From an uncultured Verrucomicrobiae bacterium (GTDB lineage Bacteria; Verrucomicrobiota; Verrucomicrobiia; Chthoniobacterales; Chthoniobacteraceae): DNA of 64,000 nucleotides. A program made the translations under genes and the position numbers. Positions 5,204 to 52,585 of this stretch are shown here, in pieces. Position 1 is the first letter of the stretch; the number at the start of each line of letters is the position of its first letter. The stretch lies in assembly GCA_963769025.1 (NCBI GenBank), contig CAVYKI010000012.1:256001-320000 (forward strand). Reading direction: 5' to 3'. The notes beneath the pieces were generated by a model. The model made no database searches, was not told the origin of the DNA, and worked only from the letters and a program-made list of their open reading frames with translations.

Positions 5204-5320
5204 AGGGTCGACACCCTAGCACATCTCCGCCTGCGAACGAGCGAAATTTTCGGCCGGCGCTGTGCTTGTATGCAAACCACTTGTCGGTAGTGCGTTACAT
5301 GGATAAATGCAGGCGCCGAT

Positions 5321-7087: not shown

Positions 7088-7128
7088 GCAGCCTTCAACA
7101 CCCGCGCGGGACCGTCTTAAAGAAAAAT

Positions 7129-7701: not shown

Positions 7702-7752
7702 CACCACGCGAATCGCTTCCCGATTTCGCGACGGCCTGCTACCGCTCCGCGC

Positions 7753-12247: not shown

Positions 12248-12275
12248 CCAAACCTCAACCCACGGAATAGCAACC

Positions 12276-14036: not shown

Positions 14037-14885
14037 GCGCCACGCGCGAAGCTGCCCTCACCGATCGCGGATTGCGCTGGCGCGGCCTCGCGTGGCTCGC
14101 GCTCTGCGGCCCGTGGTTCTTCATCGCCTACGGCTTTTGCAATTGGTTCACCGCGCAGCGCGCGCATGTCGGCACATGGTACTGGGAGTGGGAAAAGCAC
14201 GTCCCGTTCGTGCCCGAACTCATCGTGCCGTACTGGTCGCTCGACCTGCTTTTCATCGGCGCATTCGCTGCTCGCGCTGCCCGGCGGTGGATGGCTGTGG
14301 TTAGGCTGGCCCGCAATCGCGCTCGCACTCACGGCACTTGCGTACGCCACCGCAAATCCGCGTTGGCTGCAAAAATGTTCCGGCGCCCCGACACCCGCCG
14401 CCGAGTGGATCCTGCTGCCTGTCATCCTCATCTCACGCCTGTGGCAGATGCGCTGGCTGCGCCGCCAGCCCGCATGGCATGAATTCGCACCCGGCGTCTT
14501 TTTCGGCCGTCTGCTCAGCGACTCCGAAGCGCACGCTTTCCTCTCCACCCATCCGCACCTCGCCGTGATCGATCTCACCTCGGAGAGCAAGGAAGCCACA
14601 CCCTTCCGCGAGCACGCGCGCTACTTCCAAATCCCTGTCCTCGATCTCACAGAACCGGACGCGGAGACATGCCGGCAGGCGTGCGACATCATCCGTGAGC
14701 ACGCGCCGCGCGGCCCCGTCTTCATCCATTGCCTCCTCGGCCTCGGACGCAGCGCGCACATCGCCGCCGCATGGCTCCTCGCCAGCGGGCGTTGCGCCGA
14801 CGCGGAAGCCGCAGCAAAAGCCATCCGCGCGCTCGAACCACTCGCCGCGCTGGATGCCGACGCGCTGCGACGGCTCGGCGAATAA
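14033..14885 (+). pseudogene. YnbD-like PAP2/dual-specificity phosphatase with internal deletion and frameshift near 14267
   Basis: Frame of GTG 14033 gives ...FFIAYGFCNW...WEKHVPF...IVPYWSLDLL; a different frame gives WLGWPA...HCLLGLGRSA (CX5R). The middle PAP2 part is missing. Confidence 0.75.
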
Positions 14886-19839: not shown

Positions 19840-21303
19840 CTACAGCATCTCCGCCAACTTCTTCCGGTCGGCCTTCCCGTTGTTGTTCATCGGGAAGCTG
19901 TCGAGGAAATGGAATTTCCGCGGCACCATGTAAGCCGGCAGCCGTTCCCCGAGCTGCGTCTTCAATTTTGCCGCCTGCTCGAAATCCGTACCCTGCTTCG
20001 CCCCGCTGAGGACGATGAACGCGGCAAGCGAATCAATCTTCCCGCCTTTCTGAACAGGGAGAACGACCGCGTCCGCGATGTCCGGCAGCGCGCGAAGGTT
20101 GGCCTCGAGATCACCAAGCTCGATGCGATGCCCGAAGAGCTTGATCTGGCTGTCCATGCGGCCTTCGCAAAATAGCATGCCGTCGCGGTCGCGGCCCCAG
20201 TCGCCGGTGCGATAGGCGCGCGTGTCGTCGATTGGGTAGAATGCCTTTGCCGTGAGGTCGTCCCGCTTGAGGTAGCCGGGGCTGACATTCGGGCCCGCGA
20301 TTACAATTTCGCCGCGCTCGCCGGGAGGCACGGCCTTGCCATCCTCGCCGCGGATGATGACGCGTGTGCCCGGCATGACGTAACCGATGGGCAACGGGTT
20401 CCATTGCGCGATGGTCTCGCGCGTGATGCCCACCTTCGTCATCGCGACGGTCGCCTCGGTCGGGCCGTAGGTGTTCCAGACCGGAACGCCCGGGAACCGT
20501 TCAAGCAGTTGCGACGCGGTCTCCGGTGCGAGCGTCTCGCCGCAAAAGTGGAACGCGCGCAGGTGCGGCATCATCGTCGAGTTGAAGCCCTTTTCGATCA
20601 TGCACATCTGCGCAAACGAGGGGGTGGTCATCCACTGCGTCGCTCCGCTGTTCCGCAGTGCCTCGAAAAGCGCGCGCAGGTTCGAGACGTGATCCTTGGT
20701 GAGGCTGAAGATCGTGTTGCCCGAGCTGAGCGCCAGGTAGATGTCGTGGACGGAGAGATCGAACGTGAACGGCGCGTGGTTCAGGAAAATCTCGCCACAT
20801 TCGCGGAAACCGCCGTCGCCGTGCATCCACGAGAGATAGTGGTTCAGGTTGCCGCGCGTGATCACCACGCCCTTCGGCTCGCCGGTGCTGCCGCTCGTGA
20901 AGAGGATGTAGAAAGGGTCGGTGTTTTCGAGGGGCTTGCGCCGGTAGTCCACCGCGCCCGCCGCCGAAATGATTTCGGCGACCTTCGCAGGCGTGAGGAC
21001 GACCTCGGCGCCGGCGATTTCGACCACGCGCTCCATGCGTTGCGCAGGAGTGGAATAATCGATCGGAACGTACGGCCGCCCGGATCTCACCGCGGCGAAG
21101 AAGCTCATGAGCATCTCCGGCTCCTTGTGCCCGTGCACTGCCACGGGGCTGCGCTTGTCGCCGAGCTGCGCGTCGAGCCATGCCGCGACCGCATTGCTTC
21201 CGGCGAGCAGTTCACCAAAGGTCATCCGCCGATCGTTGCTGACGTGTGCGAGACGATCGGGGGCCGTGCGCCCGTATTGTTCGATTTTGTCGAGAAGGTG
21301 CAT
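19840..21303 (-). CDS. dltA: D-alanine--D-alanyl carrier protein ligase
   Basis: YILFTSGSTGEPKG, FTFDLSV, FCGE, NTYGPTEAT, YRTGD, GHRIELG, NGKADRK; start ATG 21303. Confidence 0.92.
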   Translation of the reverse strand: MHLLDKIEQYGRTAPDRLAHVSNDRRMTFGELLAGSNAVAAWLDAQLGDKRSPVAVHGHKEPEMLMSFFAAVRSGRPYVPIDYSTPAQRMERVVEIAGAEVVLTPAKVAEIISAAGAVDYRRKPLENTDPFYILFTSGSTGEPKGVVITRGNLNHYLSWMHGDGGFRECGEIFLNHAPFTFDLSVHDIYLALSSGNTIFSLTKDHVSNLRALFEALRNSGATQWMTTPSFAQMCMIEKGFNSTMMPHLRAFHFCGETLAPETASQLLERFPGVPVWNTYGPTEATVAMTKVGITRETIAQWNPLPIGYVMPGTRVIIRGEDGKAVPPGERGEIVIAGPNVSPGYLKRDDLTAKAFYPIDDTRAYRTGDWGRDRDGMLFCEGRMDSQIKLFGHRIELGDLEANLRALPDIADAVVLPVQKGGKIDSLAAFIVLSGAKQGTDFEQAAKLKTQLGERLPAYMVPRKFHFLDSFPMNNNGKADRKKLAEML

Positions 21304-21305
21304 GG

Positions 21306-21458
21306 CTAGAACTCCGCGTAAACAAACTCGGGTGTTTCGAAATTTCCGCGTCCATACATCGCCACCAGCACGGCGATGATCGCGAGGTAGTAGAGGGCCA
21401 ACAACGCAGGCCGTGCGCGGGGATGGGCCTCGAGCCAATGCTTTGCGGTCGAGATCAC
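21306..21458 (-). CDS. dltX: DltX-like small membrane protein (50 aa)
   Basis: GTG overlapping the dltC stop; single TM helix (LLALYYLAIIAVLVAMYG) and C-terminal FVYAEF matching the DltX F-x-Y-x-x-F tail. Confidence 0.8.
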   Translation of the reverse strand: MISTAKHWLEAHPRARPALLALYYLAIIAVLVAMYGRGNFETPEFVYAEF

Positions 21459-21703
21459 GCTGCGAGGCGTTTTTGCACGTCGGCCACCATCTTCGCCGGG
21501 GTGGCCCATGCGTCACGGTCGAACTCCGCCGGGGAGATTTCCACGCCGATCTCCGTCTGGAGCGCGACGATGAGCTCCACCGTCTTCATCGAGTCGAGGA
21601 TCTGCAGATCGTAGAGCGCAAGGTCGGGGTTTGTCCGGACTTCCTCGGTGTCGGCGACGCGCGCGAGGACATCGATCACTTGTTCGTTGGTCGCTGTGGC
21701 CAT
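21455..21703 (-). CDS. dltC: D-alanyl carrier protein
   Basis: 82-aa acidic ACP, LYDLQILDSMKTVELI (phosphopantetheine Ser), FDRDAWATP. Confidence 0.92.
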   Translation of the reverse strand: MATATNEQVIDVLARVADTEEVRTNPDLALYDLQILDSMKTVELIVALQTEIGVEISPAEFDRDAWATPAKMVADVQKRLAA

Positions 21704-25705: not shown

Positions 25706-27986
25706 CTAGTTTTCCGGGACAAGCTGGATGACATCAATCGCGACATTCCCATCCGCAGGCCCATCGCCAACGATCACGACCGCCGGCTTGCCCGGTTCAA
25801 AGCGGAACTTTCCGAGGCTGACAAAACCTTTCTCCATCGGAGCGGCGACCCGCTCGTTTACCATCAGCTTCTTCGCGCCGTCGGCAGACTCGATCGTCAC
25901 GGGCGCCTTGGTCGCACGATTCTCGTGCGGGCTGTAGCTGAGGCGCACCTCGTAGGAGCCCGCCTTCTCAATCTTGAACTCATAGCGCGCCGCCCCGGTT
26001 TCCTTTGCCCCGCGGTAGCGGTAGCCATCTCCATAATAACCCGGCAGCCCGTGCCCCTCGGCCCATTTGCCGGTCAGCTTAGCCTGGCTGTCGTCGAGCA
26101 CCAGACCCGGCAGCGACTTCACCGGAATTCCCGGTGCGGCATCGTGCTTGTCACCCGGAGGGGGCGCGAGCGGCTGATAGTTTGCGGGGAGCGCAGGCGT
26201 GTCGTTCACCGTCGCCCGGCGAGCTGCGCCCGGCAGGCGCATCAGTTCCTGCAGTTCGGTGAAATAGCGTTCATAGATGTCGCGCGGCATCACGTCGCGC
26301 TTCACGCAGAGGCTCGCGGCCTTGCCGACGACTTCGCCGATCATGCCGCCGGTCTTCATCACGCGGACGGTGCCGAGCGCCTCGTGAGTCACGCTCACGT
26401 TTCGGCCGGCCATGAAGAGGTTCTCCACATTCCGCGAGTAGAAGCAGCGGTAAGGCACCGGGTAGCCGTGCTTCCGGTCCACGCCCTTTCCAAAGACCGC
26501 CTTCGAGATGAACGGGTCGTCCTTTGCCACGCCCTTGGCGTACTGCTCCTTGGGATAATGAAGATCGATGTCCCACGTCGTAGGCACGGTCGCATCGGGA
26601 AATTCCTTCTTGCTCACGATGTCATCCTCCGTGAGCAGGACATCACCCATCAGCTGCCGGCTCTCACGCGGCCCGCCGATGTAGGCGACCCACTCGAGCT
26701 TCGCATTCGCATGCTCGGCCTTTGCCGCCACGGTTCTTCATCGCGTTGAACGCACCGTATAGCGCGCGGAAATTCCAGTCGCGCATGTCCTCCAGCCCGA
26801 GGATGGGATGCTTGTTGAATCCGCTCTCCCAAAACCACTGCGCGTGAAAGCGCTGCGGATACGGGAAGTCCTCCATCTCCAGCGGCAGCGCCCACGGGGT
26901 TTCGGGAAATGCGGACGGCTGACCCGTGTCCTTCCACCGCCACATGTTCGACATGCCGAGGTGCTCGGTTTCGCGAATCGTGTGATCCGCCCCTGCGAGC
27001 ACGCCGATCGTCGCATGCCCCGTCGCGTCGCAGAAAAGCCGCCCGGCGAAACGGCGCTTCATGCCGGAGCGCACGTCGAGCGACACCACCGCGGCGATCC
27101 GCTGCTTGTCCTTCATCTCCACGGCGATGACGCGGTTGTTGAAAAACAGCGTGATGTTTTTCTCCGCACGCACGACCGCCTCCTTCTTGGCGTCGCCAAA
27201 TTCCTCATACGTCCCCGGCGACAGCTTCGCGGTGTCCTGGAATTCCTCCACGATCTCGCCGAGGTTCGGATACATCCCGCGCCGCGTGCCGCCCATCGCC
27301 CACACGCGGACTTCGCTCGATCCATTGCCGCCGAGCACCGCGCGATCCTGAACCAGCGCGACCTTGCATCCCATGCGCGCCGCGGAAATCGCCGCCGCCG
27401 TGCCGCCGTAACCGCCGCCGATCACCACGAGATCGAACGTGCCAGCCTCCTCCGGCTTTTCCGGCAGGCCCAGCATGTCGTGCCGCCAGCGATCGTTGGG
27501 GTCATTCGAGTTCGGCGGAGTGAAAGCGGCGTCCTTCGTGAAGAAAATCGCGTCGCACCGCCCGGCAAATCCCGTGAGATCATGCAGCGCGAGCAAAACC
27601 TCCGGCTTTGTGACCTCGACCGTTCCCCCGTTCTGCCAGGCCCACACCTTGCCCTTCGTCCCAAACGTCTCCGCGAGCGGCTTCCCATCCACCATCACCT
27701 GGAATTTTCCCGGCGTGCCGGGCGCATTCCAGCGCGCCACCCAGTCCATCGTGCGTACCCACACGTGATATTTGCCAGTGGCGGGAAATTTCACCGTCGT
27801 GGTCGCATCCTTCACCGGCTCGCCCATGCCGTGCGCAAGCAGGTACGGCGATCCCATGCTGTCGATGAACTGTGTGTCGAGCGACCAGCCTCCGAGGTCG
27901 TGGAAGCTCTCTGCTTCTACAAAAGCCTGGTCGGCTGCGAGGGCGGTGCCGGCGAGAGCGGCGGCTGCGAGGAGGATTCGGATCAT
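25706..27986 (-). CDS. Exported FAD-dependent oxidoreductase with C-terminal carbohydrate-binding-like domain; apparent +1 frameshift at about 26722
   Basis: Signal peptide, DLVVIGGGYGGTAAAISAAR, LGGNGSSE; continues in the next frame as RESRQLMGD, YPVPYRC, LFMAGR. Removing one T of TTT 26721-23 gives ...KNRGGKAEHANAKLEWV. Confidence 0.85.
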
Positions 27987-28087
27987 GGGAATTTGGGGTC
28001 TTCCGGATCGGTAATGGCAACGCGACGGCGACACAAGCGCGGGTTACGGGCGCAATCGCGGTCCGCGAACCGCATCAGGCGGCGCGG

Positions 28088-31235: not shown

Positions 31236-32339
31236 TCACGCCGGCCGGTCGCGCATCGTCCCCGCAAACTCGATCGCATAACCGGCAATCGCAATCATCA
31301 ACCCGATGCCCGCGTGCCGGACGCCCTGCATGAGCAGATAGAACAACGCAAAGGCTCCCGCGCCCAGCGCGCAAAACGCCAGTGTGCGTTGCGTCTGTCG
31401 CGCCAACGTGGAAGCAACGGATGGGAGCGCCGCCGCCCCCACGGCCAGCACGAGCGCGATCCAGCCCAGGCCGTTCGGCATTTCACCGCCATTTCTGTGG
31501 ATGGAGGGCGTCCTGAAATCAAAACCCTGACCGCCGCCCGGCAGCGACCCGCGCATGTCCGGGAACATGTTGCCGAATTGTTCCGCGGCCTGATTCACCC
31601 CGCGTTTCACCTCATCCGCAGCATTGAAGGAAAACCACGGCAGAAAAAAGCCGAGGACCACCAGTGCTGAACCGGCACAGACGAGCTTCCGCGCCGGACT
31701 CATCGCCGCACCCTGCGCATTCGCTTGCTGCGTCACGCCCAGCGAGGCCAGCAGCGTCGCGCTGTCCGCCGCGGTGATTTTCCCCTCCTCCACCATTTTC
31801 AAAATCCGCTCGCGTTCGGGCGACACATCCGCCTGCTTCGGCGCCTCCGCCGCGGCTACCGGAGCGGCCGGTGAGAAATTCAGCAGCGGATACGCAAGGA
31901 GTGAACCCACCGTCACCAGGAGGATGACGGGAAAAGACCAGCCGTAGCCGAGCCACGCGAAAAGCGGAATCAACGCGGCAACGATGAGATTGCCACCCCG
32001 CAGCCACGCCCGCACGCCATCGGCACCCGGTGCCTTTTCCTCCGGCGTAAAGTGCCCGCCGATCCAGCGATGGTAGAGCTTGGCAGCGAGCAGCGCAGCC
32101 GCGGGCACGAACAGAAATCCGCTCGCTAGCATGATGATGTAGTCCAGTTCCTGCCGTCCGCGCGCCGACCGCAGGACGCCCTCCATCTGCTCGATCCGAT
32201 AGGCCGTAATCGCACCGGCGACGATGAGCGACCCGATCCACACCATCGCCGCGTACCGGCGTTCCAGCCCGGTGAAGCGCTTGCAGATCCCGAAGAAGAA
32301 AAACGCCGGAATGACGAATACAATGACGATGGGGGCCAT
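31236..32339 (-). CDS. Membrane protein with central SHOCT-like motif
   Basis: Multiple TM segments; ERERILKMVEEGKITAADSATLL. Confidence 0.7.
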   Translation of the reverse strand: MAPIVIVFVIPAFFFFGICKRFTGLERRYAAMVWIGSLIVAGAITAYRIEQMEGVLRSARGRQELDYIIMLASGFLFVPAAALLAAKLYHRWIGGHFTPEEKAPGADGVRAWLRGGNLIVAALIPLFAWLGYGWSFPVILLVTVGSLLAYPLLNFSPAAPVAAAEAPKQADVSPERERILKMVEEGKITAADSATLLASLGVTQQANAQGAAMSPARKLVCAGSALVVLGFFLPWFSFNAADEVKRGVNQAAEQFGNMFPDMRGSLPGGGQGFDFRTPSIHRNGGEMPNGLGWIALVLAVGAAALPSVASTLARQTQRTLAFCALGAGAFALFYLLMQGVRHAGIGLMIAIAGYAIEFAGTMRDRPA

Positions 32340-32432
32340 TCGCCGAATCCAGCACCGCAAGTCACCGCGGACAAGGTGGAAGATCACCCGCTCACCTGCC
32401 CGCGACAGGCCCGCAAACTCACTCCGCCGCGG

Positions 32433-32639
32433 TCAGCGCCACTCCAGCTTGTCGATGAAGACGTCGAATTCGCGGAGCTTTTCGTGCTGTTCCTTGAGTG
32501 CCGCGATGAGCGCAGGCTCGGACTTCTCCTGCACGCTGACGATGCCCATTGCAAAACCATGGCGTTCCTTTTCGCCCGGCTTTTTCCAGTGATAGAAAAT
32601 GCGGGCCCGGTAACTCTGCGTGGCGGATTCTTCGCTCAT
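32433..32639 (-). CDS. Hypothetical small protein
   Basis: 68 aa, coding-like composition, directly downstream of the methyltransferase. Confidence 0.6.
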   Translation of the reverse strand: MSEESATQSYRARIFYHWKKPGEKERHGFAMGIVSVQEKSEPALIAALKEQHEKLREFDVFIDKLEWR

Positions 32640-32690
32640 GGGTTCTGAAGGATGAACAACGAAAGGCTCAGTGAAAAATGGGGCTCAGTC

Positions 32691-35084
32691 CTACGGTTTC
32701 TCGACGGTGAAGATGAGCACGTAGCGTTGCGGGACGAACTGGGCGTATGAGGAAAACTTGAACCCGTAATGCGTGAGCTGGGCAATCAACAACTCCTTGG
32801 CGATGCGCGGGCCGTAGTAGCCCCCGGCCTTGTCGGAAAGCGGCATATTGTCCGCGATCACCAGCTTGCCGCCGGGCTTGAGCGCCTTCCGCAGGCTGGC
32901 GACGAATCCGTCCCGCACATACTCCAGCGAATTCACGTAGCTCGCGTGGTAGAGCGAGCACAGGAAAGCCATGTCGATTGAGTTTTCCGGCAGCGTGGCG
33001 TCGTTTTCCTTCGAAGGGACCGTCGTGATGTTGCCGATGCCCGCCGCCCGCGCGGAGCGGTCGAGGTTCGCCAACTGGTCCTTCACCAAGTCCAACGCAT
33101 AGACAGTCCCGCCCTTGCCGACGAGATTTGCGAACTTGAAGCTGAAATAACCCGCCCCGCTGCCCACGTCGGCGACCGTCTGGCCGGGCTTGATGTCGAG
33201 GATTCCGAGCATCTGGTCGGTGTGCTCCCAGTTCGCGCGCCGGGGATTCATGAAAGTGAGATATTCCCACCATTCGAGCAACGTATCCACGGGGATATCC
33301 AGCGGAAGGAGAGGATAAGGCGCCGGCTGGGCATCGGTGTCCTCGGTGGATCTTTTTGTCACGACGGGCGCGGGCCCACCCTTGTTCACATTGCCCGTGG
33401 CCGTCAGCGTGCGCGGACTTGCAGGACCCTCGGTGGGCAGGGCTTCAGTCATCACGCCGAGGGAGCGGAGACGCACCGCCTCCTTGTCGCTCAGTTCCTC
33501 CAGCTTGGGCTTCAGTTCCTCGAGGACGTATTTGTTCTTCAGGTACGTGGTCAGCCTCTTGAAATCGTCGCCTGCGAAAAACGCCGCGTAATCGGCGACC
33601 AGCAGGTCCGGAATGAGCTTTTTCCGCTCTGCTTCCGGTGCGAGTGCATAGTCGCAGAACCACTGCAACGCGGCATACTCGTCGCCGATCCGCTCCTTCG
33701 GAATAAGGACGTCGAACATCTCACGCGCGCTCTTCAGCTTTGCAGGATCTTTCTTCCTGAAGCCTTCGAGCATCACCTCCGCCGCCGCGCGTCCCGCAGT
33801 GGTGAAGGTGCCAGTCGAGCCGGCCACCTGGGAGCGCAGCAGGGAACGCCGGGAAAGCACGCGGATTTTCGCCGGGTCGCCATCCACGATCTCGGCGATG
33901 CCAGGGGTCGCGGGGAGCTTGGCGAGGTCATTCACGATGAGTCCTCCCTTCGGGATTTCGAGGGTCGGAGTGGCGGGCGGTGCCTCTCCAGGCTTCGGCG
34001 CCTCCGGCCTCAACTTGAACACGAGCACGTAACGCTGCGGGATGAACTGGTGGGTTCCCGCCAGTTCAAATCCCATGTGCTTGAACTGATCGATGATCAA
34101 CTCCCTCGCGATATACGGTCCGTGATAGGGCAGCTTCCCTTCCACCGGTCCGTTGTCGGCGAGCACAAACCTCGCGTCCGGCTTCATGGCTGCCTTCACG
34201 CTGTCGATCATCGCGGTCCGCTCCTCGTCGGACATGATGGCGTAGAGGTTATGGTAAAGGGAGCACATGAAAAGGAGGTCCACCTTTTCCGGGACGCCGA
34301 TGTCCCCCTCGCGCGGCATGACCGGAAAGACGTTCGGGACCTTCAGTTCGGCGATGGTTTTTTTGAGGTACGCGAGGTGGTTGTCGTTGTTATCGATCGC
34401 GTAAACCTTCCCCGTCGGTCCGACAAGCTTCGCAAATTGAAAGGAGAAATAGCCCGGACCGCTGCCTATGTCGGCCACCTTCTCGCCCGGCTTCAGCTCC
34501 ATCGAGGCGATCATCTTGCTGGTCTTCTCCCACAGCTCGCGACGCGGGTTGGCGAAGAGGATGAAGTCCTCCATGAAGCGGCTCCGCGTGGCTGCATCGG
34601 AATCCTGTTTTTGTCCGGGGACTTCGTCGAGGTGGTACTTGCTGCGGATGAACTCGCGGAAATTCTTCCAGTCATCGGCAGCCAGGAAGTCGCGGAAACT
34701 GCGGACGAACGGGTCGGCCAGGAATTCCTCTTTGCGGACATGCTCGGGAGCGAGTTCGCATTCCATCAGCCACTGCAGGGCGGTGTACTCGCCGCCGAAA
34801 TTTTCATCGGGGATGATGCGCGAGTAAATCGCGATGGCGTTTTTCGCAGCCGACCGGTCACCCTTTTCCAAGAACTTCAGGACATCCCTCGCCGCATCTT
34901 TCCCTCCGTCAGTCACATCAAAGGAATCCAGGCTTCCCAAATGAAGCAGCGAAGTCTTGGACGTGACATTGATGACGCTGCCCTTGATATCCGCCGGCTT
35001 TTCCGAGGCGAATCCCGATGTTGGCAGCAGGCCAAAAATGAGAAGGATTGAGGCGATCTGGGGGCGGAATGCCGCGGTGTTCAT
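32691..35084 (-). CDS. Exported tandem class I SAM-dependent methyltransferase (two repeats of helical domain + MT domain)
   Basis: Signal-like N-terminus (IASILLIFGLL..GFA/SEK); motif I twice (VADIGSGPGYF, VADVGSGAGYF); duplicated EY.ALQW, F.NPRR..WE, F.CSLYH, Y.GP.IA.EL, PQRYVL.F. Confidence 0.88.
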   Translation of the reverse strand: MNTAAFRPQIASILLIFGLLPTSGFASEKPADIKGSVINVTSKTSLLHLGSLDSFDVTDGGKDAARDVLKFLEKGDRSAAKNAIAIYSRIIPDENFGGEYTALQWLMECELAPEHVRKEEFLADPFVRSFRDFLAADDWKNFREFIRSKYHLDEVPGQKQDSDAATRSRFMEDFILFANPRRELWEKTSKMIASMELKPGEKVADIGSGPGYFSFQFAKLVGPTGKVYAIDNNDNHLAYLKKTIAELKVPNVFPVMPREGDIGVPEKVDLLFMCSLYHNLYAIMSDEERTAMIDSVKAAMKPDARFVLADNGPVEGKLPYHGPYIARELIIDQFKHMGFELAGTHQFIPQRYVLVFKLRPEAPKPGEAPPATPTLEIPKGGLIVNDLAKLPATPGIAEIVDGDPAKIRVLSRRSLLRSQVAGSTGTFTTAGRAAAEVMLEGFRKKDPAKLKSAREMFDVLIPKERIGDEYAALQWFCDYALAPEAERKKLIPDLLVADYAAFFAGDDFKRLTTYLKNKYVLEELKPKLEELSDKEAVRLRSLGVMTEALPTEGPASPRTLTATGNVNKGGPAPVVTKRSTEDTDAQPAPYPLLPLDIPVDTLLEWWEYLTFMNPRRANWEHTDQMLGILDIKPGQTVADVGSGAGYFSFKFANLVGKGGTVYALDLVKDQLANLDRSARAAGIGNITTVPSKENDATLPENSIDMAFLCSLYHASYVNSLEYVRDGFVASLRKALKPGGKLVIADNMPLSDKAGGYYGPRIAKELLIAQLTHYGFKFSSYAQFVPQRYVLIFTVEKP

Positions 35085-35252
35085 AAGGTAGGTATCGATT
35101 CGGCGAAGGAGGCGGACATGCGCGACCTGTACTGCCGTTGTGTCTGCGGCTGACGCGTTGTCACGACAGTCCGGTTGCCACCAAAGCACAAGTCCCAAGT
35201 GTCAGACGGGGACTCTCACCCGGCAGTTCCGCACGATGGTTTGCGCAGCGAC

Positions 35253-36779
35253 TCAGGCTTGCGAATCAAACAGTGTTTGATTCAGGTAGGGATTCAGCGG
35301 CCCCTCTGCGTACTCCGAGCGCGGGTATGGGACGAAGTCGGCGCTGTGGAACTGCTGCGCGACTTCGTCGGCAAAGAATGCGCCGAGCTTGGTGACGCCG
35401 AGCGAACGGTCCGGCGTCTCCTGCACGAGCCCAGCGGCCTTCAGCGCCTCGATCTTGCCGCGGAAAACCTCGTCCAAGCCGAGGCCGGTGAGCCGGCGGT
35501 AGTTCGAAGTGCGGACATCGCGGTTCTTAATCGGCAGGACGATGGCCCACCGCGCCTGATCCTCGGCGTTGCGGCGGTAGCCACGATTGATCGGCAGGTG
35601 ACCGCTCTCGATGAGCGAGTAGTACTCGTCGAAGTTCTGGGTGCAGAGCGCGAACCGGTCGCGCATGCTGCTGAACGCCGTCAGGCCGATGCCGATCTGG
35701 TCGAACTGCACGCAGCACTGGTTGTGCGCGTAGACCGAGTAGTCGCCACGGCGGCGCGAGAAGACGCGGCGCAGGTTCTCGGTGTAGCCGTAGTGATTCA
35801 GCATGAGAATCGCAGCCTGCTTCATGATGAACTGCGTCTCGTTGTCCGGGTATTCCTCCGGCCTGCTGTTCACGTAGTTCTTCACCGCTCCTTGGTGGTC
35901 GCCGTAGGCCTCGATCTTCAGGCGATAGAGCTGAATCTCATGCACGCCGAGCTTGCAGGCTTGCTCGATCACATCGAGCCAGTTTTCCAGCGTCTGGCCG
36001 AGGTAACCGAAGATGAACTCGATGTTCACCATGAAGCCGGCGTCGAGCGTTTCCTTGATCGCCTGGAGTGCTTCATTCGGGCCGTGGTGGCGTCCCATTT
36101 TCTTGAGGATGGTCGAGTTCAGCGACTGGACGCCGATGGTCAGCCGGTCCACGCCGTACTCGCGCATCACGGCGAGGCGCTTTTCGCCATCGGGGCCGAT
36201 GAGCGTGTTCGGATCCACGTCGTAGTTGAACTGGCGGCAGATGGACATGTCCACGCGCTCGCAGAAGCCGTCGAGGAAGCGGCGGAACTGATCCACGGTG
36301 AGGAAGGTCGGTGTGCCGCCGCCCACGAGGATCGAGCGGGCCTTGATGCGGTCCACGCCGAGGCGGTTGCGCCAGATGTCCGTCTCCTTCATGAAGGCGT
36401 CGATGTACTTCGACTTTTCGTCGAGCTGCGGCCCGAGCTTCACCGGGTAGTGGCAGAAGACGCAGTGTGAATTGCAAAACGGCACGTGCGCGTAGATGTC
36501 TACCGCGCCGTCGTCCGGCAGCTTGTAGCCTTCGAGCAGTTCGTCATCCGTCATCGGCGGATACATCGTGATCGGCGGGTAATGGACGGACGGGTAAAAA
36601 TCACCCTTCTTGTTGATAAGCCCCGCGTCGCGGAGACGGCGGAAATCTTCGACTCGCTCCTTCGCCTTTTCGATCAGCGCCGCACGGTCCACCGGACCGG
36701 CGTCACAGGGCGGCGGCGGCAGATGCGGACGGAGGAGTTTCGGGTTGATGCCAGTGGGTTCGAGCAGTGCAGCGTTCAT
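35253..36779 (-). CDS. HemN-like (class C-type) radical SAM enzyme
   Basis: YAHVPFCNSHCVFC (CxxxCxxC), GGGTPT, RLTIGVQS, FGYLGQT, IGIGLTAFS, HemN_C-like tail. Confidence 0.88.
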   Translation of the reverse strand: MNAALLEPTGINPKLLRPHLPPPPCDAGPVDRAALIEKAKERVEDFRRLRDAGLINKKGDFYPSVHYPPITMYPPMTDDELLEGYKLPDDGAVDIYAHVPFCNSHCVFCHYPVKLGPQLDEKSKYIDAFMKETDIWRNRLGVDRIKARSILVGGGTPTFLTVDQFRRFLDGFCERVDMSICRQFNYDVDPNTLIGPDGEKRLAVMREYGVDRLTIGVQSLNSTILKKMGRHHGPNEALQAIKETLDAGFMVNIEFIFGYLGQTLENWLDVIEQACKLGVHEIQLYRLKIEAYGDHQGAVKNYVNSRPEEYPDNETQFIMKQAAILMLNHYGYTENLRRVFSRRRGDYSVYAHNQCCVQFDQIGIGLTAFSSMRDRFALCTQNFDEYYSLIESGHLPINRGYRRNAEDQARWAIVLPIKNRDVRTSNYRRLTGLGLDEVFRGKIEALKAAGLVQETPDRSLGVTKLGAFFADEVAQQFHSADFVPYPRSEYAEGPLNPYLNQTLFDSQA

Positions 36780-36819
36780 CGGCGTGGGTTGTTTGTTGGA
36801 AACGGGTTGTGGTTGAGAG

Positions 36820-37869
36820 TTAAATCAGCGGGGCTTTTCCAAAAGTGAGCTTCGCATCGTGGACGAAAGTTTCGCAGCGCGCAAAGCCGGGCGAGCAGCG
36901 ATCCGTGGAGTAAATCGGGAAGAGCTTCTTGAATTCGTCCGGGGTGCCGTCGTGAATCGTCACCGTGTTTGCGCCAGCCATGAGCCCCATGAGCTGTCCG
37001 CCCTTTTTGCCGCGTTCGAGGCAGCTGGTGGTGGGCATCAGACGATGCGGATACATGATCCGCATGAGCGCCATCTGGTTCAGAGCGATCTCCACGTCTC
37101 CCATGGGCTGCGTGCTGTAGTTGCACATCTCGCCGGGGATGAAAACCGTGCAGCTCATCATCGAGAGATTGTATTTCCCGAGCAGGAGGATGTCGTCGAT
37201 CACGTCGTCCATCGACTGGCCGGGCATGCCGACCATGTTGCCGGTGCCAACCTTGAAGCCCACATCGACCAAGTCTTGGAGGCACGCGAGCCGCTTGTCG
37301 AGGGTGTCGCTGGGCTTCCACGTCGAATACAGCGTGGGGCTCGATGACTCGAATTTAAGAATGTAGCGGTCTGCGCCGGCTTCCTTGAGGCGGACGTATT
37401 GCTCGTGGCTGAGATTGCCCATGCAGAGGATGATCTCGAGGTCGGGATGCCTGCTTTTGATCTCCGTGAGGCACTTCGCCGTATATTCGATGAACCCCTT
37501 CGAGCTGTTCTCGCCGGACTGGAGAAGGATGACGCGGCGACCCCTCTCATACAAAAAGTCCACCTGCTCCATGAGCGGGTCAATTTTGATGACGTAGCGC
37601 TTGAGCTTCGATTCCTTCGCCATGCTGCAGTAGTTGCAACTCTGCTGGCAGACGTTCGAGAGCTCGATGACGCTTCGCGTTTCCACTTCGCGCGCCGGCC
37701 ATTCGGCGTCGCGGCGTTCGCGGGCGAGGGCGAAGAGTTTTTCCTGGTCCGAGCCGCGTGCAAGGAGACCCCGGCGGAGCGTCTCCCTCGAATAATCCCC
37801 TGCTGCGAGGGCTTCCACAAATGACACTGAGGACTGTGCATCGGTGTCTTGAATCAATGTCGTAATCAT
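36820..37869 (-). CDS. HydE/PylB/BioB-superfamily radical SAM enzyme (closest in pattern to HydE)
   Basis: IELSNVCQQSCNYC, ILLQSGE, AGADRYILKFES, GNMVGMPGQS, VFIP, MPTTS, AGAN. Confidence 0.85.
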   Translation of the reverse strand: MITTLIQDTDAQSSVSFVEALAAGDYSRETLRRGLLARGSDQEKLFALARERRDAEWPAREVETRSVIELSNVCQQSCNYCSMAKESKLKRYVIKIDPLMEQVDFLYERGRRVILLQSGENSSKGFIEYTAKCLTEIKSRHPDLEIILCMGNLSHEQYVRLKEAGADRYILKFESSSPTLYSTWKPSDTLDKRLACLQDLVDVGFKVGTGNMVGMPGQSMDDVIDDILLLGKYNLSMMSCTVFIPGEMCNYSTQPMGDVEIALNQMALMRIMYPHRLMPTTSCLERGKKGGQLMGLMAGANTVTIHDGTPDEFKKLFPIYSTDRCSPGFARCETFVHDAKLTFGKAPLI

Positions 37870-37878
37870 CGGTTAGAG

Positions 37879-37886
37879 CCTCCTTT
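37879..37886 (-). promoter_or_regulatory. Strong Shine-Dalgarno AAAGGAGG
   Basis: CCTCCTTT on plus strand, 9 nt upstream of ATG 37869. Confidence 0.75.
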
Positions 37887-38243
37887 AATTCGGTTGGTGT
37901 TGTAAAGATTCCGTTAAGAGCGAGACGGAATCAAGGGTTAAAGTTCCGGAGGTTTAAAAGAGACGCGTCCACGCACCGGATATTCGATATTCCTCGCCGA
38001 CCCAGTCGCCCGACAAACGCTCGACGACCCAGTGCATGAGTCAAAGGCAGCCGGTGGGTGCCATCCAGATGCTGCCTCTGGGCGACGCGAACGAACAAAA
38101 ACCGGACACTCAGCACGGACATATCAGGGATACAGCAACCTAAAACTGGCGCGCCCACCTCGTTCAGATTCGGACAAAAACCGGGATTACGGACGAAGTT
38201 TTCCTATCGGCGCGACAGCGAAACGTTTCTGCCGCACAGCAGT

Positions 38244-39122
38244 TCAGGCGTTGCAGAGCACGATCACCCCGCCGAGGGCTGTGAGAGTGCCGACGATCTG
38301 CAGCGGCGTGATCTTTTCCTTCAACACGATCGCCGCGAGCGGCAGCACGAATACGGGCTCCAGCGAAATCAGCGTGTTCGCGATGGCGACCGGCAGGAAT
38401 TTGATCGCCACGAGCGAAAGCCAGAAGCCGCCGAACGTCACCACGCACACGGCGACGAGGAACGAGCCCGCGAGGCGGGCTTCACGGAATGATCCCATCC
38501 ATTCTCCGAGCCGCCGCGTGCACAGCCCAAAGAGCGCGAGCCCCACGGCGCCCGCAGCCATCCTCACAAAAGTGCCCTGCATCGCCGATGCGGTCTCGAG
38601 TCCTTCCTTTGCCATGATGACGGAAACGGACATGCAGATCACCGACAGCATCCCGAGCACGATTCCGCGGACGCGCGAAGGCTGGCGGGGGCCGGAGAGG
38701 TTCGCCCAAAGCACGATCGTCACGCCGACCAGAACGCACGCGATTCCGCCCCACGCGGCTGCGGATGGCCTTTCGCCGAGGAACACGAGCGCGAGCACCG
38801 CGGTGAAAACCTGCCCCACCATCATCAGCACGACGAGCGTCTGCGGCCCGAGGTGGCGGAGGGCCGCGAAAAACAGGGTGTCCCCGACGGCGATCCCGAC
38901 CAAACCGCTCGCGATCATCAGCCACAGGTTTTGCGGAGTCACGCTGCTGTAGCCGAGGAAAAGCAGCGCGATGCCGACGAATACGACGCTGACCGCCGAC
39001 TTCACCAGCGTCATCGCGAGCGGCGACATGCTTTCGCCGATGCGCTTGAAAAGGATCGCCCCGAGTGCCCACGAGGCCGCGGACCCTAGCGCGGCGGCGA
39101 TGCCGAGTGCGGACGTCGTCAT
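38244..39122 (-). CDS. EamA/DMT family transporter
   Basis: 292 aa, about 10 TM in two repeats; GDTLFF..L..LG, FLGER, LEPVF, LKEKIT. Confidence 0.9.
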   Translation of the reverse strand: MTTSALGIAAALGSAASWALGAILFKRIGESMSPLAMTLVKSAVSVVFVGIALLFLGYSSVTPQNLWLMIASGLVGIAVGDTLFFAALRHLGPQTLVVLMMVGQVFTAVLALVFLGERPSAAAWGGIACVLVGVTIVLWANLSGPRQPSRVRGIVLGMLSVICMSVSVIMAKEGLETASAMQGTFVRMAAGAVGLALFGLCTRRLGEWMGSFREARLAGSFLVAVCVVTFGGFWLSLVAIKFLPVAIANTLISLEPVFVLPLAAIVLKEKITPLQIVGTLTALGGVIVLCNA

Positions 39123-39268: not shown

Positions 39269-40228
39269 TCACTCCGCAATCGCGTAGCGTCCCATGCTGC
39301 GCGACTGGTAGAGTTCGCCCTTGGACCAGATGCAGCCCTCGACATGCGGCGCCTGCTCGATCAAAGGCAGCCCGGCTTCCCGCCCGAGCACGAATGCAAC
39401 CGTCGAGAGCACGCCGGCTTCCGTGCAGGTCGGCGCGATGACCGTGACGCTCTGGCAGCCGTTATCCACCGGCCAGCCGGTACGCGGATCGAGGATGTGT
39501 GTGAATGAACGCCCGTCGATCTCGAACGCCCGGAGGTAGCCGCCCGAAGTCGTCACGGCGCGATCCTTAACGGCGACGCCGCCCCAGCAGCGCTGCGGGT
39601 CGAGCGGGTGCTCGAGCCCGACGCGCCATTCGCCACCACCCGGCGCCTCGCCGCTCACGCGCAGATCGCGTCCGAAATCCACACAGATGTCCTTGATGGT
39701 CCACTGCCGGCTTTGTTCGAAAATCCGATCCACCGCGTACTCCTTCCCGATTCCGCCAAGGTCGATTCCCATTCCCGCCTCGGGCAGGAAGATCCCCCCG
39801 CTGCGGCGTTGCACCTTGCCCCAGCCGGTGAGCGCGAGCGCGCGCGAAATTTCCCCCGGCGCCGGGATGACAGGCTTCTCCGCATGGTAGTCCCAGAGCC
39901 GCGCGATGGGGAGCGTGCTCGCATCAAAAACACCGCCGGTCCGCCACGTGAACCAGTCGCAGAGTTTCAGGATGCTCTCGAGTTCCGCGTCCGTCTCCAC
40001 CCAGTCGCGCCCGGCCATCGCGTTGATTTTTGAGATGAGGCTGTCGGCCCGGAATCGCGAATATTTCGCCTCGAAGTTCTCGACCCATGCGACGACGGCG
40101 CGGCGGAATTCCCCGGCGGCGCGCAGCGACGGCGCTCGGAAAATCACCTGGCAATGCGTTCCCATCGCGCGGAATTCGAGCCGATCGAAACCCGCGTCCG
40201 CACTGGATGGCGACCCCGTCGGCGACAT
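39269..40228 (-). CDS. apbE: FAD:protein FMN transferase
   Basis: FRAMGT, SRFRADS.IS.IN, IDLGGIGKEYAVD, TTSGGY, HILDPRTG. Confidence 0.93.
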   Translation of the reverse strand: MSPTGSPSSADAGFDRLEFRAMGTHCQVIFRAPSLRAAGEFRRAVVAWVENFEAKYSRFRADSLISKINAMAGRDWVETDAELESILKLCDWFTWRTGGVFDASTLPIARLWDYHAEKPVIPAPGEISRALALTGWGKVQRRSGGIFLPEAGMGIDLGGIGKEYAVDRIFEQSRQWTIKDICVDFGRDLRVSGEAPGGGEWRVGLEHPLDPQRCWGGVAVKDRAVTTSGGYLRAFEIDGRSFTHILDPRTGWPVDNGCQSVTVIAPTCTEAGVLSTVAFVLGREAGLPLIEQAPHVEGCIWSKGELYQSRSMGRYAIAE

Positions 40229-40237
40229 TGCCGGAGA

Positions 40238-41542
40238 TCAGAACGGGAACCGCAGGCCGATCGTGTAGATGTTCGCGTTCGGATACGCGTCACTGCTGGT
40301 CACCTTGTCGCGGCCCCACATGTCATAGCGCTCGTAGCCCACATCGACGGAGTAGGTGTCGCGCGGCGTCCATATCAACTTCACGCCGTAGGAGAGCGAC
40401 GCTGCGTTCGAAAGCCGGTAGTCGGCGGAATAAAATTCCGGCGTGCTCGTGAACATCATCCCGTAAAAATTCGCCGCGTCCTGCTGGTGATAGCGCACGC
40501 TGGGCTTCAGCACGAGCGTGGGGCCGATTTTCTGGTACCACGCAAAGGCCGCCGTGTGGGCGCTCACTCCGAATGAATCCCGGTAGAAACGGTGCGACAC
40601 CTCGGCGTTGCCGTTCAGCGAATCCACCGCGCGCGTGAGCGACGTGAACAAAATCTGATGGTCCTTCCGCCCGGGGCGTTTGTCGCTCAGCAGCGAGCCG
40701 CTGACCCATGCGACCTTGTACGGATCGGAAAGAAAACCCGACGAATAGCCGGCCGTGAAGTTCACGGCGAGCACGGTCTTCGGATCGAGCACCTGCGTCG
40801 CGCCGAGAAAAAACTGCACGCCATTTTTCGTCTCCGTCGAGTGGGTGGCGATGGCGTCCACGTCGTCGTGATTCAGCGCCAGGCCCGCCGAGACGACCGT
40901 GTTCTTCTGGTTGAACTCCCGCGCAACCTTCCCCGTGGCGGTGAACGAAGTGTAGTCCAGTTCGTTGCTAAAGGCGAACTGCCCGCTGTACAGATAGTCT
41001 CCGGAGCGGAGGGTGAGCTCGGCGTTCACGCCGAGGCGTGCATCGTTGAAACGCTGCGTCGGCAGCACGTCGTCCGTCGCCGACGGAAGCGGCGGCGCGG
41101 ACGGGCCGGTAGCGGACGTCGTGCTGACCGTCGTCCGCGCGCTCGCCCCCGACACCACATTGTAGGTGCGTCCGGCGCTGCCGATGCGGATCTGGTTGGT
41201 CGTCGGCGCGCCGGTCGGCGATGCGCCGGAAATCACGTCGTAGATTCCCTCGATCTTGAGATTCAGCCGCGTAGAAAGCTCCTTCTCCAAAATGAACGAC
41301 GGACCCCACACGGTGACGCGATCCCGCTCCTCGGCGTACCAGATGTATTTGAAATCCACCCGGTCCTCGGCATCTGCGCGGCGCACCTGGAGGAGTTGGA
41401 GCGCGACGGCGAGCATCATCGCTCGCGTCCGCAGGGAAGTGCCGCTCAGTTGCGGCCGTATCGGGATGAAGTCTCTTGCGCACGAATTCGCATCCTTTCG
41501 GATCGCCGCTGCCGTTTTCAAGAAAAACCCTGACAGTTTCAT
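40238..41542 (-). CDS. DUF3570-like outer-membrane beta-barrel protein with flavinylation motifs (start uncertain, 41542 or 41419)
   Basis: Y.EE..RV.V, DVISGAS and NVVSGAS, SNELDY.S, FNQKNT, GFLSDPYK, YRDSFG, SADYRLS, C-terminal Phe; adjacent to apbE. Confidence 0.8.
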   Translation of the reverse strand: MKLSGFFLKTAAAIRKDANSCARDFIPIRPQLSGTSLRTRAMMLAVALQLLQVRRADAEDRVDFKYIWYAEERDRVTVWGPSFILEKELSTRLNLKIEGIYDVISGASPTGAPTTNQIRIGSAGRTYNVVSGASARTTVSTTSATGPSAPPLPSATDDVLPTQRFNDARLGVNAELTLRSGDYLYSGQFAFSNELDYTSFTATGKVAREFNQKNTVVSAGLALNHDDVDAIATHSTETKNGVQFFLGATQVLDPKTVLAVNFTAGYSSGFLSDPYKVAWVSGSLLSDKRPGRKDHQILFTSLTRAVDSLNGNAEVSHRFYRDSFGVSAHTAAFAWYQKIGPTLVLKPSVRYHQQDAANFYGMMFTSTPEFYSADYRLSNAASLSYGVKLIWTPRDTYSVDVGYERYDMWGRDKVTSSDAYPNANIYTIGLRFPF

Positions 41543-41699
41543 TCCCGCGCTCCGTTCCCGGCCTCGCCCTGCGCGGCCTTCGCGTTTCCGGTTCCGCGTC
41601 GGTTGCGGAACATTTTCCCGGGCCGCATTCGCCATCTTCATTGACAAACCAGCGCCACGGTAAAGCGTATCCCCGGCCGGAAAAACAGGATCACCAACC

Positions 41700-42236
41700 A
41701 TGAACCACACAGACTTCACCCCACTGACATGCGGGCGCCCGTCGGGGACGCCGTGGATTGCGACCCTCCTCGCGCTGCTCGTCGTATTCACGGGTTTCGC
41801 GAACGCGGCGGATGCCGGCACGCGCCTGCCCAGCCTCAGCGGTGCTTCGCTCGAAGGCGACTTGCCGGCCACACGCGGCAAGGTCCTGCTGGTGGATTTC
41901 TGGGCGTCGTGGTGCGGGCCGTGTAAAAAATCATTCCCGTCCCTCGAAGAGTTGCACCAGCGCTACAAGGGGCGCGGCCTCGTCGTGATCGGCATCAGCG
42001 TGGATGAGGACGCCGGGGCGATGCATCGATTCCTCCGCCAGCACCCTGTCTCTTTTTCCATCGTACGCGACCGGGAGCAAAAGCTGGTCAAGGCGCTGAA
42101 AATCGAGGCGATGCCCACATCCTTGCTTGTGGACCGGAGCGGCGTGATCCGGTTCGTGAATTCGGGATTCAGGGGCTCGTCCACCGAGGCCCAGCTCCAG
42201 CGGCAAATCGAGCAGCTTCTCCAGTCTTCCAAATGA
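41700..42236 (+). CDS. TlpA-family thioredoxin-like disulfide reductase
   Basis: Signal/TM, GKVLLVDFWASWCGPC, ISVD, MPTS.LVDR.G. Confidence 0.92.
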   Translation: MNHTDFTPLTCGRPSGTPWIATLLALLVVFTGFANAADAGTRLPSLSGASLEGDLPATRGKVLLVDFWASWCGPCKKSFPSLEELHQRYKGRGLVVIGISVDEDAGAMHRFLRQHPVSFSIVRDREQKLVKALKIEAMPTSLLVDRSGVIRFVNSGFRGSSTEAQLQRQIEQLLQSSK

Positions 42237-52510: not shown

Positions 52511-52585
52511 TCCGGAGTAGCTCAATGGTAGAGCACGCGACTGTTAATCGTGTGGTTGTAGGTTCGAGTCCTACCTCCGGAGCCA
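52511..52585 (+). tRNA. tRNA-Asn (GTT)
   Basis: TCCGGAG/CTCCGGA acceptor stem, AGCTCAATGGTAGAGC D arm, CTGTTAA anticodon loop, GGTTCGAGTCC T arm, encoded CCA. Confidence 0.97.

Follow-up and report, generated by a model that had tools for sequence, protein, structure and literature searches.

Five minus-strand genes in a 64,000-nucleotide stretch of DNA from an uncultured Verrucomicrobiae bacterium (contig CAVYKI010000012.1, positions 256,001 to 320,000; hereafter the window) bring together two radical S-adenosylmethionine (SAM) enzymes, one HydE-like and one HemN-like, a tandem methyltransferase with a predicted signal peptide, a carrier of the EamA/DMT family and a small conserved protein. 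The best reading of this cassette is a radical-SAM-based small-molecule pathway that matches no described one. Its proteins are new subfamilies of known superfamilies, and the copy in the window is most likely one instance of a cassette that has spread horizontally. We tentatively propose, at somewhat less than an even chance, that the cassette makes a small methylated metabolite from an amino-acid-like precursor, tailors it outside the cytoplasm and exports it.

Domains were assigned with Pfam and NCBIfam (release 20) at curated bit-score cut-offs. The host genome comprises 5.3 Mb on 13 contigs, is 83% complete, and has Chthoniobacterales metagenome-assembled genomes (Verrucomicrobiota) as its nearest public relatives. 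The features of the cassette, in window coordinates, are as follows.

38244-39122, minus strand: EamA/DMT-family carrier of 292 residues (PF00892, 138.9 bits, two repeats)
37879-37940, minus strand: conserved promoter-like element and ribosome-binding site 5' of the HydE-like gene (seven aligned intergenic regions)
36820-37869, minus strand: HydE-like radical SAM enzyme of 349 residues (P0003; PF04055)
35253-36779, minus strand: HemN-like (class-C-type) radical SAM enzyme of 508 residues (P0002; PF04055)
32691-35084, minus strand: tandem class I SAM-type methyltransferase of 797 residues (Pfam methyltransferase matches in both halves)
35007-35084, minus strand: predicted Sec signal peptide of the methyltransferase, residues 1-26 (sequence by eye and hydropathy)
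32433-32639, minus strand: orf68, a conserved cytoplasmic protein of 68 residues and clade-restricted accessory gene (jackhmmer, homologue alignment)

Transcription runs from the EamA gene through the HydE-like, HemN-like and methyltransferase genes to orf68. Only 40 nt (36780-36819) lie between the two radical SAM genes, with 168 nt between the HemN-like and methyltransferase genes and 51 nt between the latter and orf68. An earlier, sequence-only reading of the window had listed the same five open reading frames (ORFs) and the 40-bp spacing; an ORF check reproduced the coordinates exactly, and the spacing with them.

Recurrence and distribution of the cassette

Loci were collected around the HydE-like protein, with 8 from species genomes, 1 from a phylum sample and 80 from metagenomes, the last being the best 80 of 144 confirmed. 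These 89 loci fall into 72 non-redundant groups at 97% nucleotide identity, 30 of which are well flanked, having at least 3 kb on both sides. A HemN-like gene is present in 54 of the 72 groups and in 25 of the 30 well-flanked ones, an EamA gene in 35 and 21, and a methyltransferase gene in 32 and 20; all three occur together in 24 of 72 groups, rising to 18 of 30 where flanks are long, and none of them in 14 of 72 and 5 of 30 (L009, L051, L084, L089 and L098). Many of the 72 groups lie on short contigs, so that the absences are partly a contig-end effect.

The arrangement of these genes is variable. At least 14 different gene orders and strand combinations occur among the 30 well-flanked groups, and across all 72 the methyltransferase may lie upstream, downstream or on the opposite strand, with EamA before or after the radical SAM pair, which points to selection on co-location more than to synteny by descent. 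The pair itself is tightly spaced: of 51 co-directional cases, 50 fall between -24 and 198 nt. The set of two radical SAM genes, methyltransferase and EamA thus recurs in shuffled orders, on many unrelated contigs and on a plasmid, and the lack of co-occurrence that would have refuted the sequence-only reading is not what is seen.

Within the phylum the distribution is sparse. Among 401 evenly drawn genomes, close orthologues of the HydE-like protein were found in two, the host genome and G335, and close orthologues of the HemN-like protein in exactly the same two; a further 42 genomes of the sample hold HydE-type proteins of about 30-36% identity, which are unclassified. Named homologues extend well beyond it, to Planctomycetes, the cyanobacteria Calothrix, Desmonostoc and Chroococcopsis, Competibacteraceae, Chromatiaceae, Eisenbergiella, a Clostridia bacterium and Methanothrix.

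Bradyrhizobium sp. ISRA443, a strain sampled from peanut, carries one copy (L140) on a conjugative plasmid of 317 kb (NZ_CP094524.1, 157767-183191). The methyltransferase of this copy is of the single-unit form and bears a signal peptide; alongside lie a DMT carrier gene, whose product is 48% identical to the EamA protein of the window, genes for an ABC ATPase, an FtsX permease and HlyD, and three amino-acid ABC importer genes (Aap-like). Its HemN-like protein is 58% identical to that of the window, and its HydE-like protein is more divergent, with 32% identity and 165.7 bits on the HydE model, below cut-off. A plasmid search with the Eisenbergiella methyltransferase matched only the same Bradyrhizobium plasmids. 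On the 3' side of this cassette lies a polysaccharide-type region with glycosyltransferases, GalE, an ABC-2-type transporter pair and an FkbM methyltransferase.

The HydE-like radical SAM enzyme

The HydE-like protein belongs to the same radical SAM TIM-barrel family as HydE (3ciw, 4jy8, 8qmk). It matches the Thermotoga maritima structures at E 5e-53, with residues 14-325 aligned to 4jy8 at an identity that we estimate from reading the alignment at about 40%, and the cluster motif C74xxxC78xxC81 (CxxxCxxC) is invariant in the protein and its homologues (n = 22). On the HydE model TIGR03956 it scores 197.7 bits, below the cut-off of 254.6, and the PylB and BioB models score far lower still. Public annotations call the homologues “biotin synthase”.

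Reading the alignment by eye places R168 on R155 of the T. maritima enzyme and T280/T281 on T268/T269, all kept, and K172 at the position of R159, where lysine is invariant in 22 homologues. In T. maritima HydE all four residues belong to the substrate pocket, where the arginine R155 and the Thr-Thr pair bind the carboxylates of thiazolidine or cysteine ligands; by this alignment the HydE-like protein appears to keep these carboxylate-binding residues.

HydE co-occurs with HydF and HydG, as documented in an excerpt of PMC3226654. In the 83%-complete host genome there is no match to the HydA domain PF02906, and the best matches to HydG (174.8 bits against a cut-off of 312.15) and HydF (88.4 against 325.55) lie well below threshold; next to the HydE-like gene, in place of HydF and HydG, stands the HemN-like gene. 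Because the protein falls below the HydE cut-off in a genome with no HydA, HydF or HydG above theirs, it is, to judge from these profile searches, not a hydrogenase maturase. The genome-wide search, together with the Pfam scan of the window, also upholds the earlier statement that the window contains no hydA, hydF, hydG or hem genes.

The HemN-like radical SAM enzyme

The second radical SAM enzyme has a HemN-type fold and is about equally far from HemN and from the class C methyltransferase NocN, matching HemN (1olt) at E 2.6e-18 and NocN (9p2u) at E 1.6e-14 over the core only. It falls below every curated cut-off. The top-scoring NCBIfam model, the STM4012 family (NF006067), gives 161.6 bits against a cut-off of 380, far too low for membership of a family that is itself uncharacterised; HemN (TIGR00538) gives 120.2 bits against 324.95, HemW (TIGR00539) 113.4 against 205.4 and ChuW/HutW (TIGR04107) 120.9 against 400. 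The identity with bona fide HydE and HemN/HemW that would have refuted the sequence-only reading is not seen, both radical SAM enzymes lying below their curated cut-offs in an 83%-complete genome in which no hydAFG was found.

Over 20 homologues, cyanobacteria and Gammaproteobacteria included, the mean column identity is 64%, and identity of about 60% across phyla points to strong constraint. Y96-A-H98 and G153-G-G-T-P157 (GGGTP) are invariant in these homologues and align to HemN, and the homologues bear the HemN_C domain PF06969; the Y-x-H, CxxxCxxC and GGGTP motifs are consistent with the binding of two SAM molecules. The cluster motif reads C102-NSH-C106-VF-C109-H-Y111, with H110 and Y111 invariant. 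The motif of HemN is CxxxCxxCxC, and here H-Y follows CxxxCxxC with no fourth cysteine. Two further features set the protein apart from class C enzymes and HemN, both of them invariant: the extension GDFxPSVHYPPITMYPP at its N-terminus and an NQCC motif. In the latter, C355-C356 align 5-6 residues after HemN F310/Q311, so that the motif may sit near the second-SAM site or substrate region. A complex prediction for the HemN-like and HydE-like proteins scored 0.00, which weighs neither for nor against their interaction.

Homologues carry the public annotation “coproporphyrinogen III oxidase”. Passages of a review of HemN-like proteins (PMC10114718) cover the class C radical SAM mechanism and the enzymes NosN, C10P, YtkT and Jaw5, and note uncharacterised bacterial subclades.

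The tandem methyltransferase and its signal peptide

The longest methyltransferase ORF begins at a TTG at 35198; the alignment of homologues starts only with the ATG at 35084, which supports that ATG as the start codon. The protein consists of two copies of a unit made up of a helical N-domain and a Rossmann domain, and both halves keep the motifs DxGxGxG, YAxD, CSLYH, VDN, PYHGP and PQRY in the homologue alignment. In motif I, D205/G207/G209/G211 and D639/G641/G643/G645 are invariant, and D231, the acidic residue after strand 2, is nearly so. Structure prediction gave a half-unit model with a pLDDT of 91.9 and a full-length model with a pTM of 0.81, the latter consistent with a covalent pseudo-dimer. 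The best structural match of the Rossmann domain is 3dh0 (Foldseek E 6e-12; VIA Z 21.0, rmsd 1.9 over 182 residues), followed by the small-molecule natural-product methyltransferases MppJ, PhzM, SgvM, Fur6, MtfA and XrdM. A profile of the unit recovered 265 representative clusters at E ≤ 1e-30 among 1.84 billion proteins, with homologues in single (about 350 residues) and double (about 700 residues) forms.

The N-terminus, MNTAAFRPQIASILLIFGLLPTSGFA/SE, resembles a Sec signal peptide by eye and by hydropathy: a basic residue precedes a hydrophobic stretch that peaks at 2.92 in an 11-residue Kyte-Doolittle window and is followed by GFA/S, the slash marking the predicted end of the signal peptide. 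The pLDDT of this region in the full-length model is below 50. A basic residue and hydrophobic stretch also precede the first conserved motif in 15 of 15 full-length double methyltransferases from the collected loci. A wider survey took the 120 best database homologues with the same 11-residue window; 28 had no start methionine or no anchor motif and were left out, and of the 92 classifiable proteins 59 pass the hydropathy threshold and 33 fail, seven of the latter being clear signal peptides by eye that score just under it (1.78-1.97).

Among homologues that bear an organism name, the signal peptide is present in the methyltransferases of Verrucomicrobiaceae, Competibacteraceae and Planctomycetes and absent from those of Eisenbergiella porci, a Clostridia bacterium and Methanothrix; as only six are named, the trend is a pattern, not a statistic. 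It suggests that the methyltransferase acts outside the inner membrane in cells with a periplasm and in the cytoplasm of cells without one. The exported double methyltransferase of the sequence-only reading is supported in so far as a signal peptide is predicted here and in all the double forms from the loci; export is not universal, about 26 of the 92 having none.

An arsenic-related role was considered and is kept as a weak lead only. The top NCBIfam matches of the methyltransferase are ArsM-type, at 75.4 bits against a cut-off of 510, each methyltransferase domain has only one conserved cysteine, and the scanned neighbourhoods contain no ars genes. The CC pair of the HemN-like enzyme resembles the arsenic-binding RCCLKC tail of ArsL as given in part of a preprint (10.1101/2024.02.01.577332), and is likewise no more than a weak lead.

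The EamA carrier, the promoter-like element and orf68

EamA adjoins the HydE-like gene in the 35 non-redundant groups that carry it, upstream or downstream and on either strand. NCBIfam places the protein only near generic carboxylate, amino-acid and amine carriers (TIGR00950, 75.5 bits against a cut-off of 230.2; RhtA, 29.8). Some DMT/EamA proteins, in Rickettsia and Chlamydia, transport SAM.

In the window 374 nt separate EamA from the HydE-like gene. Seven Chthoniobacterales-type intergenic regions, 166-374 nt long, were aligned; they are unalignable except for a block just 5' of the start codon, in which an invariant TTGA is followed by TAAC..A....T.ACA, then GGAGG, then ATG. Because of this block the four downstream genes probably have their own promoter in this lineage. 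A generic sigma-70 promoter scan did not call the element, and the promoter and terminator scan yielded nothing usable. The EamA gene is adjoining and co-oriented, as had been read from the sequence, and on the evidence of the gap and its promoter-like element it is best described here as a neighbour, not a member of the same tight operon.

The small gene orf68 was found by jackhmmer in 12 of the 89 loci, corresponding to 10 of the 72 groups and 8 of the 30 well-flanked ones, and in every case it closes the cassette on the 3' side, preceded by either the methyltransferase or the HemN-like gene. In an alignment of nine sequences 17 residues are invariant, among them a C-terminal EWR, conservation by which orf68 is judged a real gene. 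Neither Pfam nor NCBIfam assigns it to a family, and it gave no Atlas lead (best score 0.84, the chance level). Its inclusion in the set by the sequence-only reading holds for the clade with more than 55% HydE-like identity, to which it is confined. A role as precursor of a ribosomally synthesised and post-translationally modified peptide is not supported, as orf68 occurs in so few groups, is conserved over its full length and has an invariant C-terminus.

Recurrent neighbours

All ORFs of the loci were clustered and the representatives scanned with Pfam. HlyD-type adaptors were found in 13 loci (9 groups), accompanied by MacB_PCD/FtsX permeases and ABC ATPases and, in L116, by an OEP. Such MacB/HlyD/OEP pumps, which draw their substrates from the periplasm, plausibly fit a scheme of cytoplasmic synthesis, export by EamA and periplasmic finishing. 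Embedded between cassette genes in 7 loci (6 groups) are amino-acid permeases of the APC family; in L070 the permease lies between the methyltransferase and the pump genes. NCBIfam places these permeases only among generic amino-acid transporters and antiporters. One Na:Ala symporter and one branched-chain-type binding protein were seen as isolated neighbours, and several lineage-specific exported proteins without a family accompany the cassette.

Individual loci show further features. In L051 (10001-12505) a 62% identical HydE-like gene is followed after 16 nt by a B12-binding radical SAM gene instead of a HemN-like one, that is, by another methyltransferase-type class of partner, and the pair lies within a glycosyltransferase region. 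In L116 a SAM riboswitch (RF00162, 53.2 bits; 5279-5420, minus strand) lies 5' of a Cys/Met-metabolism PLP gene divergent from the cassette; its presence there is probably a coincidence. L074 has no recognisable double methyltransferase and has a PCMT-type methyltransferase upstream; two paralogous exported proteins of 553 and 759 residues (6369-8030 and 12476-14755), which have no Pfam family, flank the cassette. TonB-type outer-membrane receptors flank the cassettes of L070 and L092.

The remainder of the window

The rest of the window consists of housekeeping genes. Pfam detected no polyketide synthase (PKS) or nonribosomal peptide synthetase (NRPS) among its 38 further ORFs, in agreement with the sequence-only reading, the sole related match being a stand-alone AMP-binding ligase at 19840-21516. 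An Rfam scan of the window and 16 loci found no riboswitch inside or 5' of the cassette; in the window the sole match is a tRNA gene (52511-52582, plus strand).

Three sets of adjacent genes were rejected as cassette members. DUF3570 and the ApbE flavin transferase (39269-41881, minus strand) run in the same direction as the cassette here, and in the close relatives L005 and L008 (4601-6973) they are inverted and divergent from EamA, which indicates a local inversion breakpoint at the EamA end. A 383-residue ORF with a SHOCT-like domain (31236-32387, minus strand), between orf68 and an ABC ATPase, is missing at the same place in the relative L004 and is hence a variable insertion. The ABC ATPase and FtsW stay beside the solo HydE-like gene in L009.

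Further away, a 586-residue fusion of an S33-type hydrolase (Hydrolase_4) with Methyltransf_20 (12276-14036, plus strand) lies directly 3' of an acyltransferase gene (10260-11309) and a CDP-diglyceride synthase-type gene (11306-12247); together these (10260-14036) are possibly a lipid-modifying operon. At 25706-28034 (minus strand) a FAD_oxidored domain is split across two overlapping ORFs, with profile positions 1-165 in the ORF at 26664-28034 and positions 274-415, together with a Golvesin_C domain, in that at 25706-26731. A frameshift, an assembly error or a genuine split gene could each account for this.

A proposed pathway and its difficulties

In the proposed pathway the HydE-like enzyme would bind a small substrate of the carboxylate or amino-acid type and use the 5'-deoxyadenosyl radical for a rearrangement or for formation of a C-S or C-C bond. 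The HemN-like enzyme would bind two SAM molecules and, as class C enzymes do, transfer a SAM-derived methylene or methyl to the intermediate, which EamA would then carry across the inner membrane. The double methyltransferase may add the final methyl group or groups, in the periplasm in diderms, including the host, and in the cytoplasm in single-membraned bacteria and archaea, as the distribution of signal peptides suggests. Where they are present, a MacB/HlyD/OEP pump would expel the product out of the periplasm and the precursor would enter through an amino-acid permease or ABC importer, the roles of both being suggested by their recurrence as neighbours. The nearness of the methyltransferase fold to small-molecule methyltransferases, with SAM motifs intact in both halves, supports such a pathway.

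Several points weigh against it. The HydE-like gene stands alone in 5 of the 30 well-flanked groups, and solo genes of 75-77% identity occur in three non-redundant Chthoniobacterales-type lineages (L007, L009 and L011/L061/L062), so that the enzyme can persist without the rest of the cassette. In two of the solo genomes, whose HydE-like copies are 76-77% identical, no HemN-like orthologue was found, only paralogues of 25-32% identity, which cassette-bearing genomes hold too. Because the loci were gathered by similarity to the HydE-like protein, the counts are silent on partner genes that occur without it. Neither a riboswitch nor a regulator hints at a ligand in the window or the scanned loci, and no MacB/HlyD pump or amino-acid permease lies beside the window copy. 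The homologues that have short polar N-termini in place of a signal peptide, about 26 of the 92 classifiable ones, imply that the chemistry does not itself require a periplasmic step. The data cover which genes the cassette holds and their families, how often they occur together, their folds and conserved motifs and the pattern of signal peptides, and from these we infer every chemical and transport step of the scheme; this too counts against it.

The main difficulty is a periplasmic SAM-dependent methyltransferase with no known supply of methyl donor, neither ATP nor SAM being available in the periplasm. HydE chemistry yields S-adenosyl products and class C enzymes yield SAM adducts. A more specific version, which we regard as unlikely, would have the radical SAM pair build an adenosyl-sulfonium donor, either a SAM-substrate adduct or a private SAM analogue, that is exported by the DMT carrier and used in the periplasm by the methyltransferase-fold protein.

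Alternative explanations

Two alternatives address the supply of methyl donor directly. One, quite unlikely in our estimate, would make EamA a SAM/SAH (S-adenosylhomocysteine) exchanger feeding a methyltransferase whose target is an envelope component or a toxic compound entering from outside, with the radical SAM pair making a co-substrate or being only loosely coupled. The retention of canonical SAM motifs, the co-occurrence of EamA with the methyltransferase and the many lineage-specific exported proteins of unassigned function in the neighbourhoods speak in its favour. Its weakness is that it leaves the tight pairing of two radical SAM genes with the methyltransferase unexplained; moreover EamA lies near generic carriers only, below cut-off, the methyltransferase fold is nearest to small-molecule biosynthetic enzymes, and no ars, mer or teh genes occur in the scanned neighbourhoods.

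The other, which seems to us distinctly unlikely, follows the C10P/C10Q model. Here the HemN-like enzyme would attach a methylene radical derived from SAM to the substrate and release a covalent SAM-substrate sulfonium adduct, EamA would export it, and the methyltransferase-fold protein would grip the adduct by its adenosyl-methionine part and resolve it by nucleophilic substitution with release of SAH, no free SAM being needed outside the cytoplasm. HemN-like and methyltransferase-fold genes are conserved neighbours, as in the two-component cyclopropanase, EamA directly adjoins the methyltransferase in several loci and on the plasmid, the intact SAM-binding motifs of an exported protein are otherwise hard to explain, and the class C mechanism is described in part of PMC10114718. 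Nothing in the sequence ties the methyltransferase to C10Q, with which it was not compared, over other methyltransferases; the homologues free of a signal peptide show that sharing a compartment with the HemN-like enzyme is viable too, and no DMT carrier is known to export a charged sulfonium adduct.

The direction of transport could also be reversed, with an external compound methylated in the periplasm, imported through EamA or an APC permease and broken down by the two radical SAM enzymes. Amino-acid importers and permeases recur beside the cassette, and the TonB-type receptors of L070 and L092 would suit uptake; nevertheless we consider this improbable, as the recurrent MacB/HlyD/OEP efflux pumps point outward, methylation preceding catabolism would be unusual, and the settings in which such pairs of radical SAM enzymes are known are biosynthetic pathways and the maturation of cofactors.

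A tetrapyrrole system, in which the HemN-like enzyme handles porphyrin or haem and the other genes modify or export the tetrapyrrole, is very improbable. Resemblance to HemN, HemW and ChuW/HutW and the HemN_C domain of homologues would agree with it, and MacAB-TolC is able to export protoporphyrin; set against this, all of those profile scores are far below cut-off, H-Y replaces the fourth cysteine of HemN, no hem, chu or hut genes occur in the window or the scanned neighbourhoods, and the HydE-like partner and amino-acid transporters do not fit. That the two enzymes are ordinary housekeeping HydE and HemN/HemW beside an unrelated methyltransferase and transporter, a reading that the public annotations favour, is already contradicted and scarcely credible: both lie below all curated cut-offs, no HydA, HydF or HydG was found in the 83%-complete genome, the co-occurrence holds in shuffled orders across phyla, carriage of both by just 2 of 401 phylum genomes is incompatible with housekeeping, and the same genomes hold separate HemN-type paralogues at 25-32% identity.

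Relation to known systems

The cassette as a unit has no match in NCBIfam release 20, and no description of the gene set or pathway was found in the open-access PMC and bioRxiv literature, so that the earlier statement that no described pathway has this combination is upheld within that literature. Two known systems come closest in logic. Like C10P/C10Q, the CC-1065 cyclopropanase, the cassette pairs a HemN-like enzyme with a conserved methyltransferase-fold partner, found in 20 of the 30 well-flanked groups, a likeness in gene arrangement. Unlike that system it has no PKS, NRPS or other scaffold genes in the window or its neighbourhoods, the tandem methyltransferase that serves as partner bears a signal peptide in diderms and so is predicted to act in another compartment, and there is an additional HydE-like enzyme and DMT carrier.

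Pyoverdine is synthesised in the cytoplasm, exported across the inner membrane, matured in the periplasm and expelled by the MacAB-type system PvdRT-OpmQ. The cassette would follow the same order of making, exporting, tailoring in the periplasm and expelling, with pump genes in 9 groups and on the plasmid. It differs in having no NRPS, in tailoring by a SAM-type methyltransferase, in using a DMT carrier instead of an ABC exporter, and in the lack of a pump beside the window copy.

The characterised relatives of the two radical SAM enzymes form C-S bonds by radical adenosylation (HydE) and transfer SAM-methylene radicals (the HemN-like class C enzymes). The patchy distribution, in 2 of 401 phylum genomes, and the carriage on a conjugative plasmid suggest that the cassette is probably an accessory trait with ecological value, for which a secreted metabolite, a signal, a chelator or an antimetabolite are candidates. 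An exported methyltransferase with intact SAM motifs raises the question of what feeds methyl transfer outside the cytoplasm. If true, an exported sulfonium donor would amount to a new principle by which group transfer outside the cytoplasm is energised.

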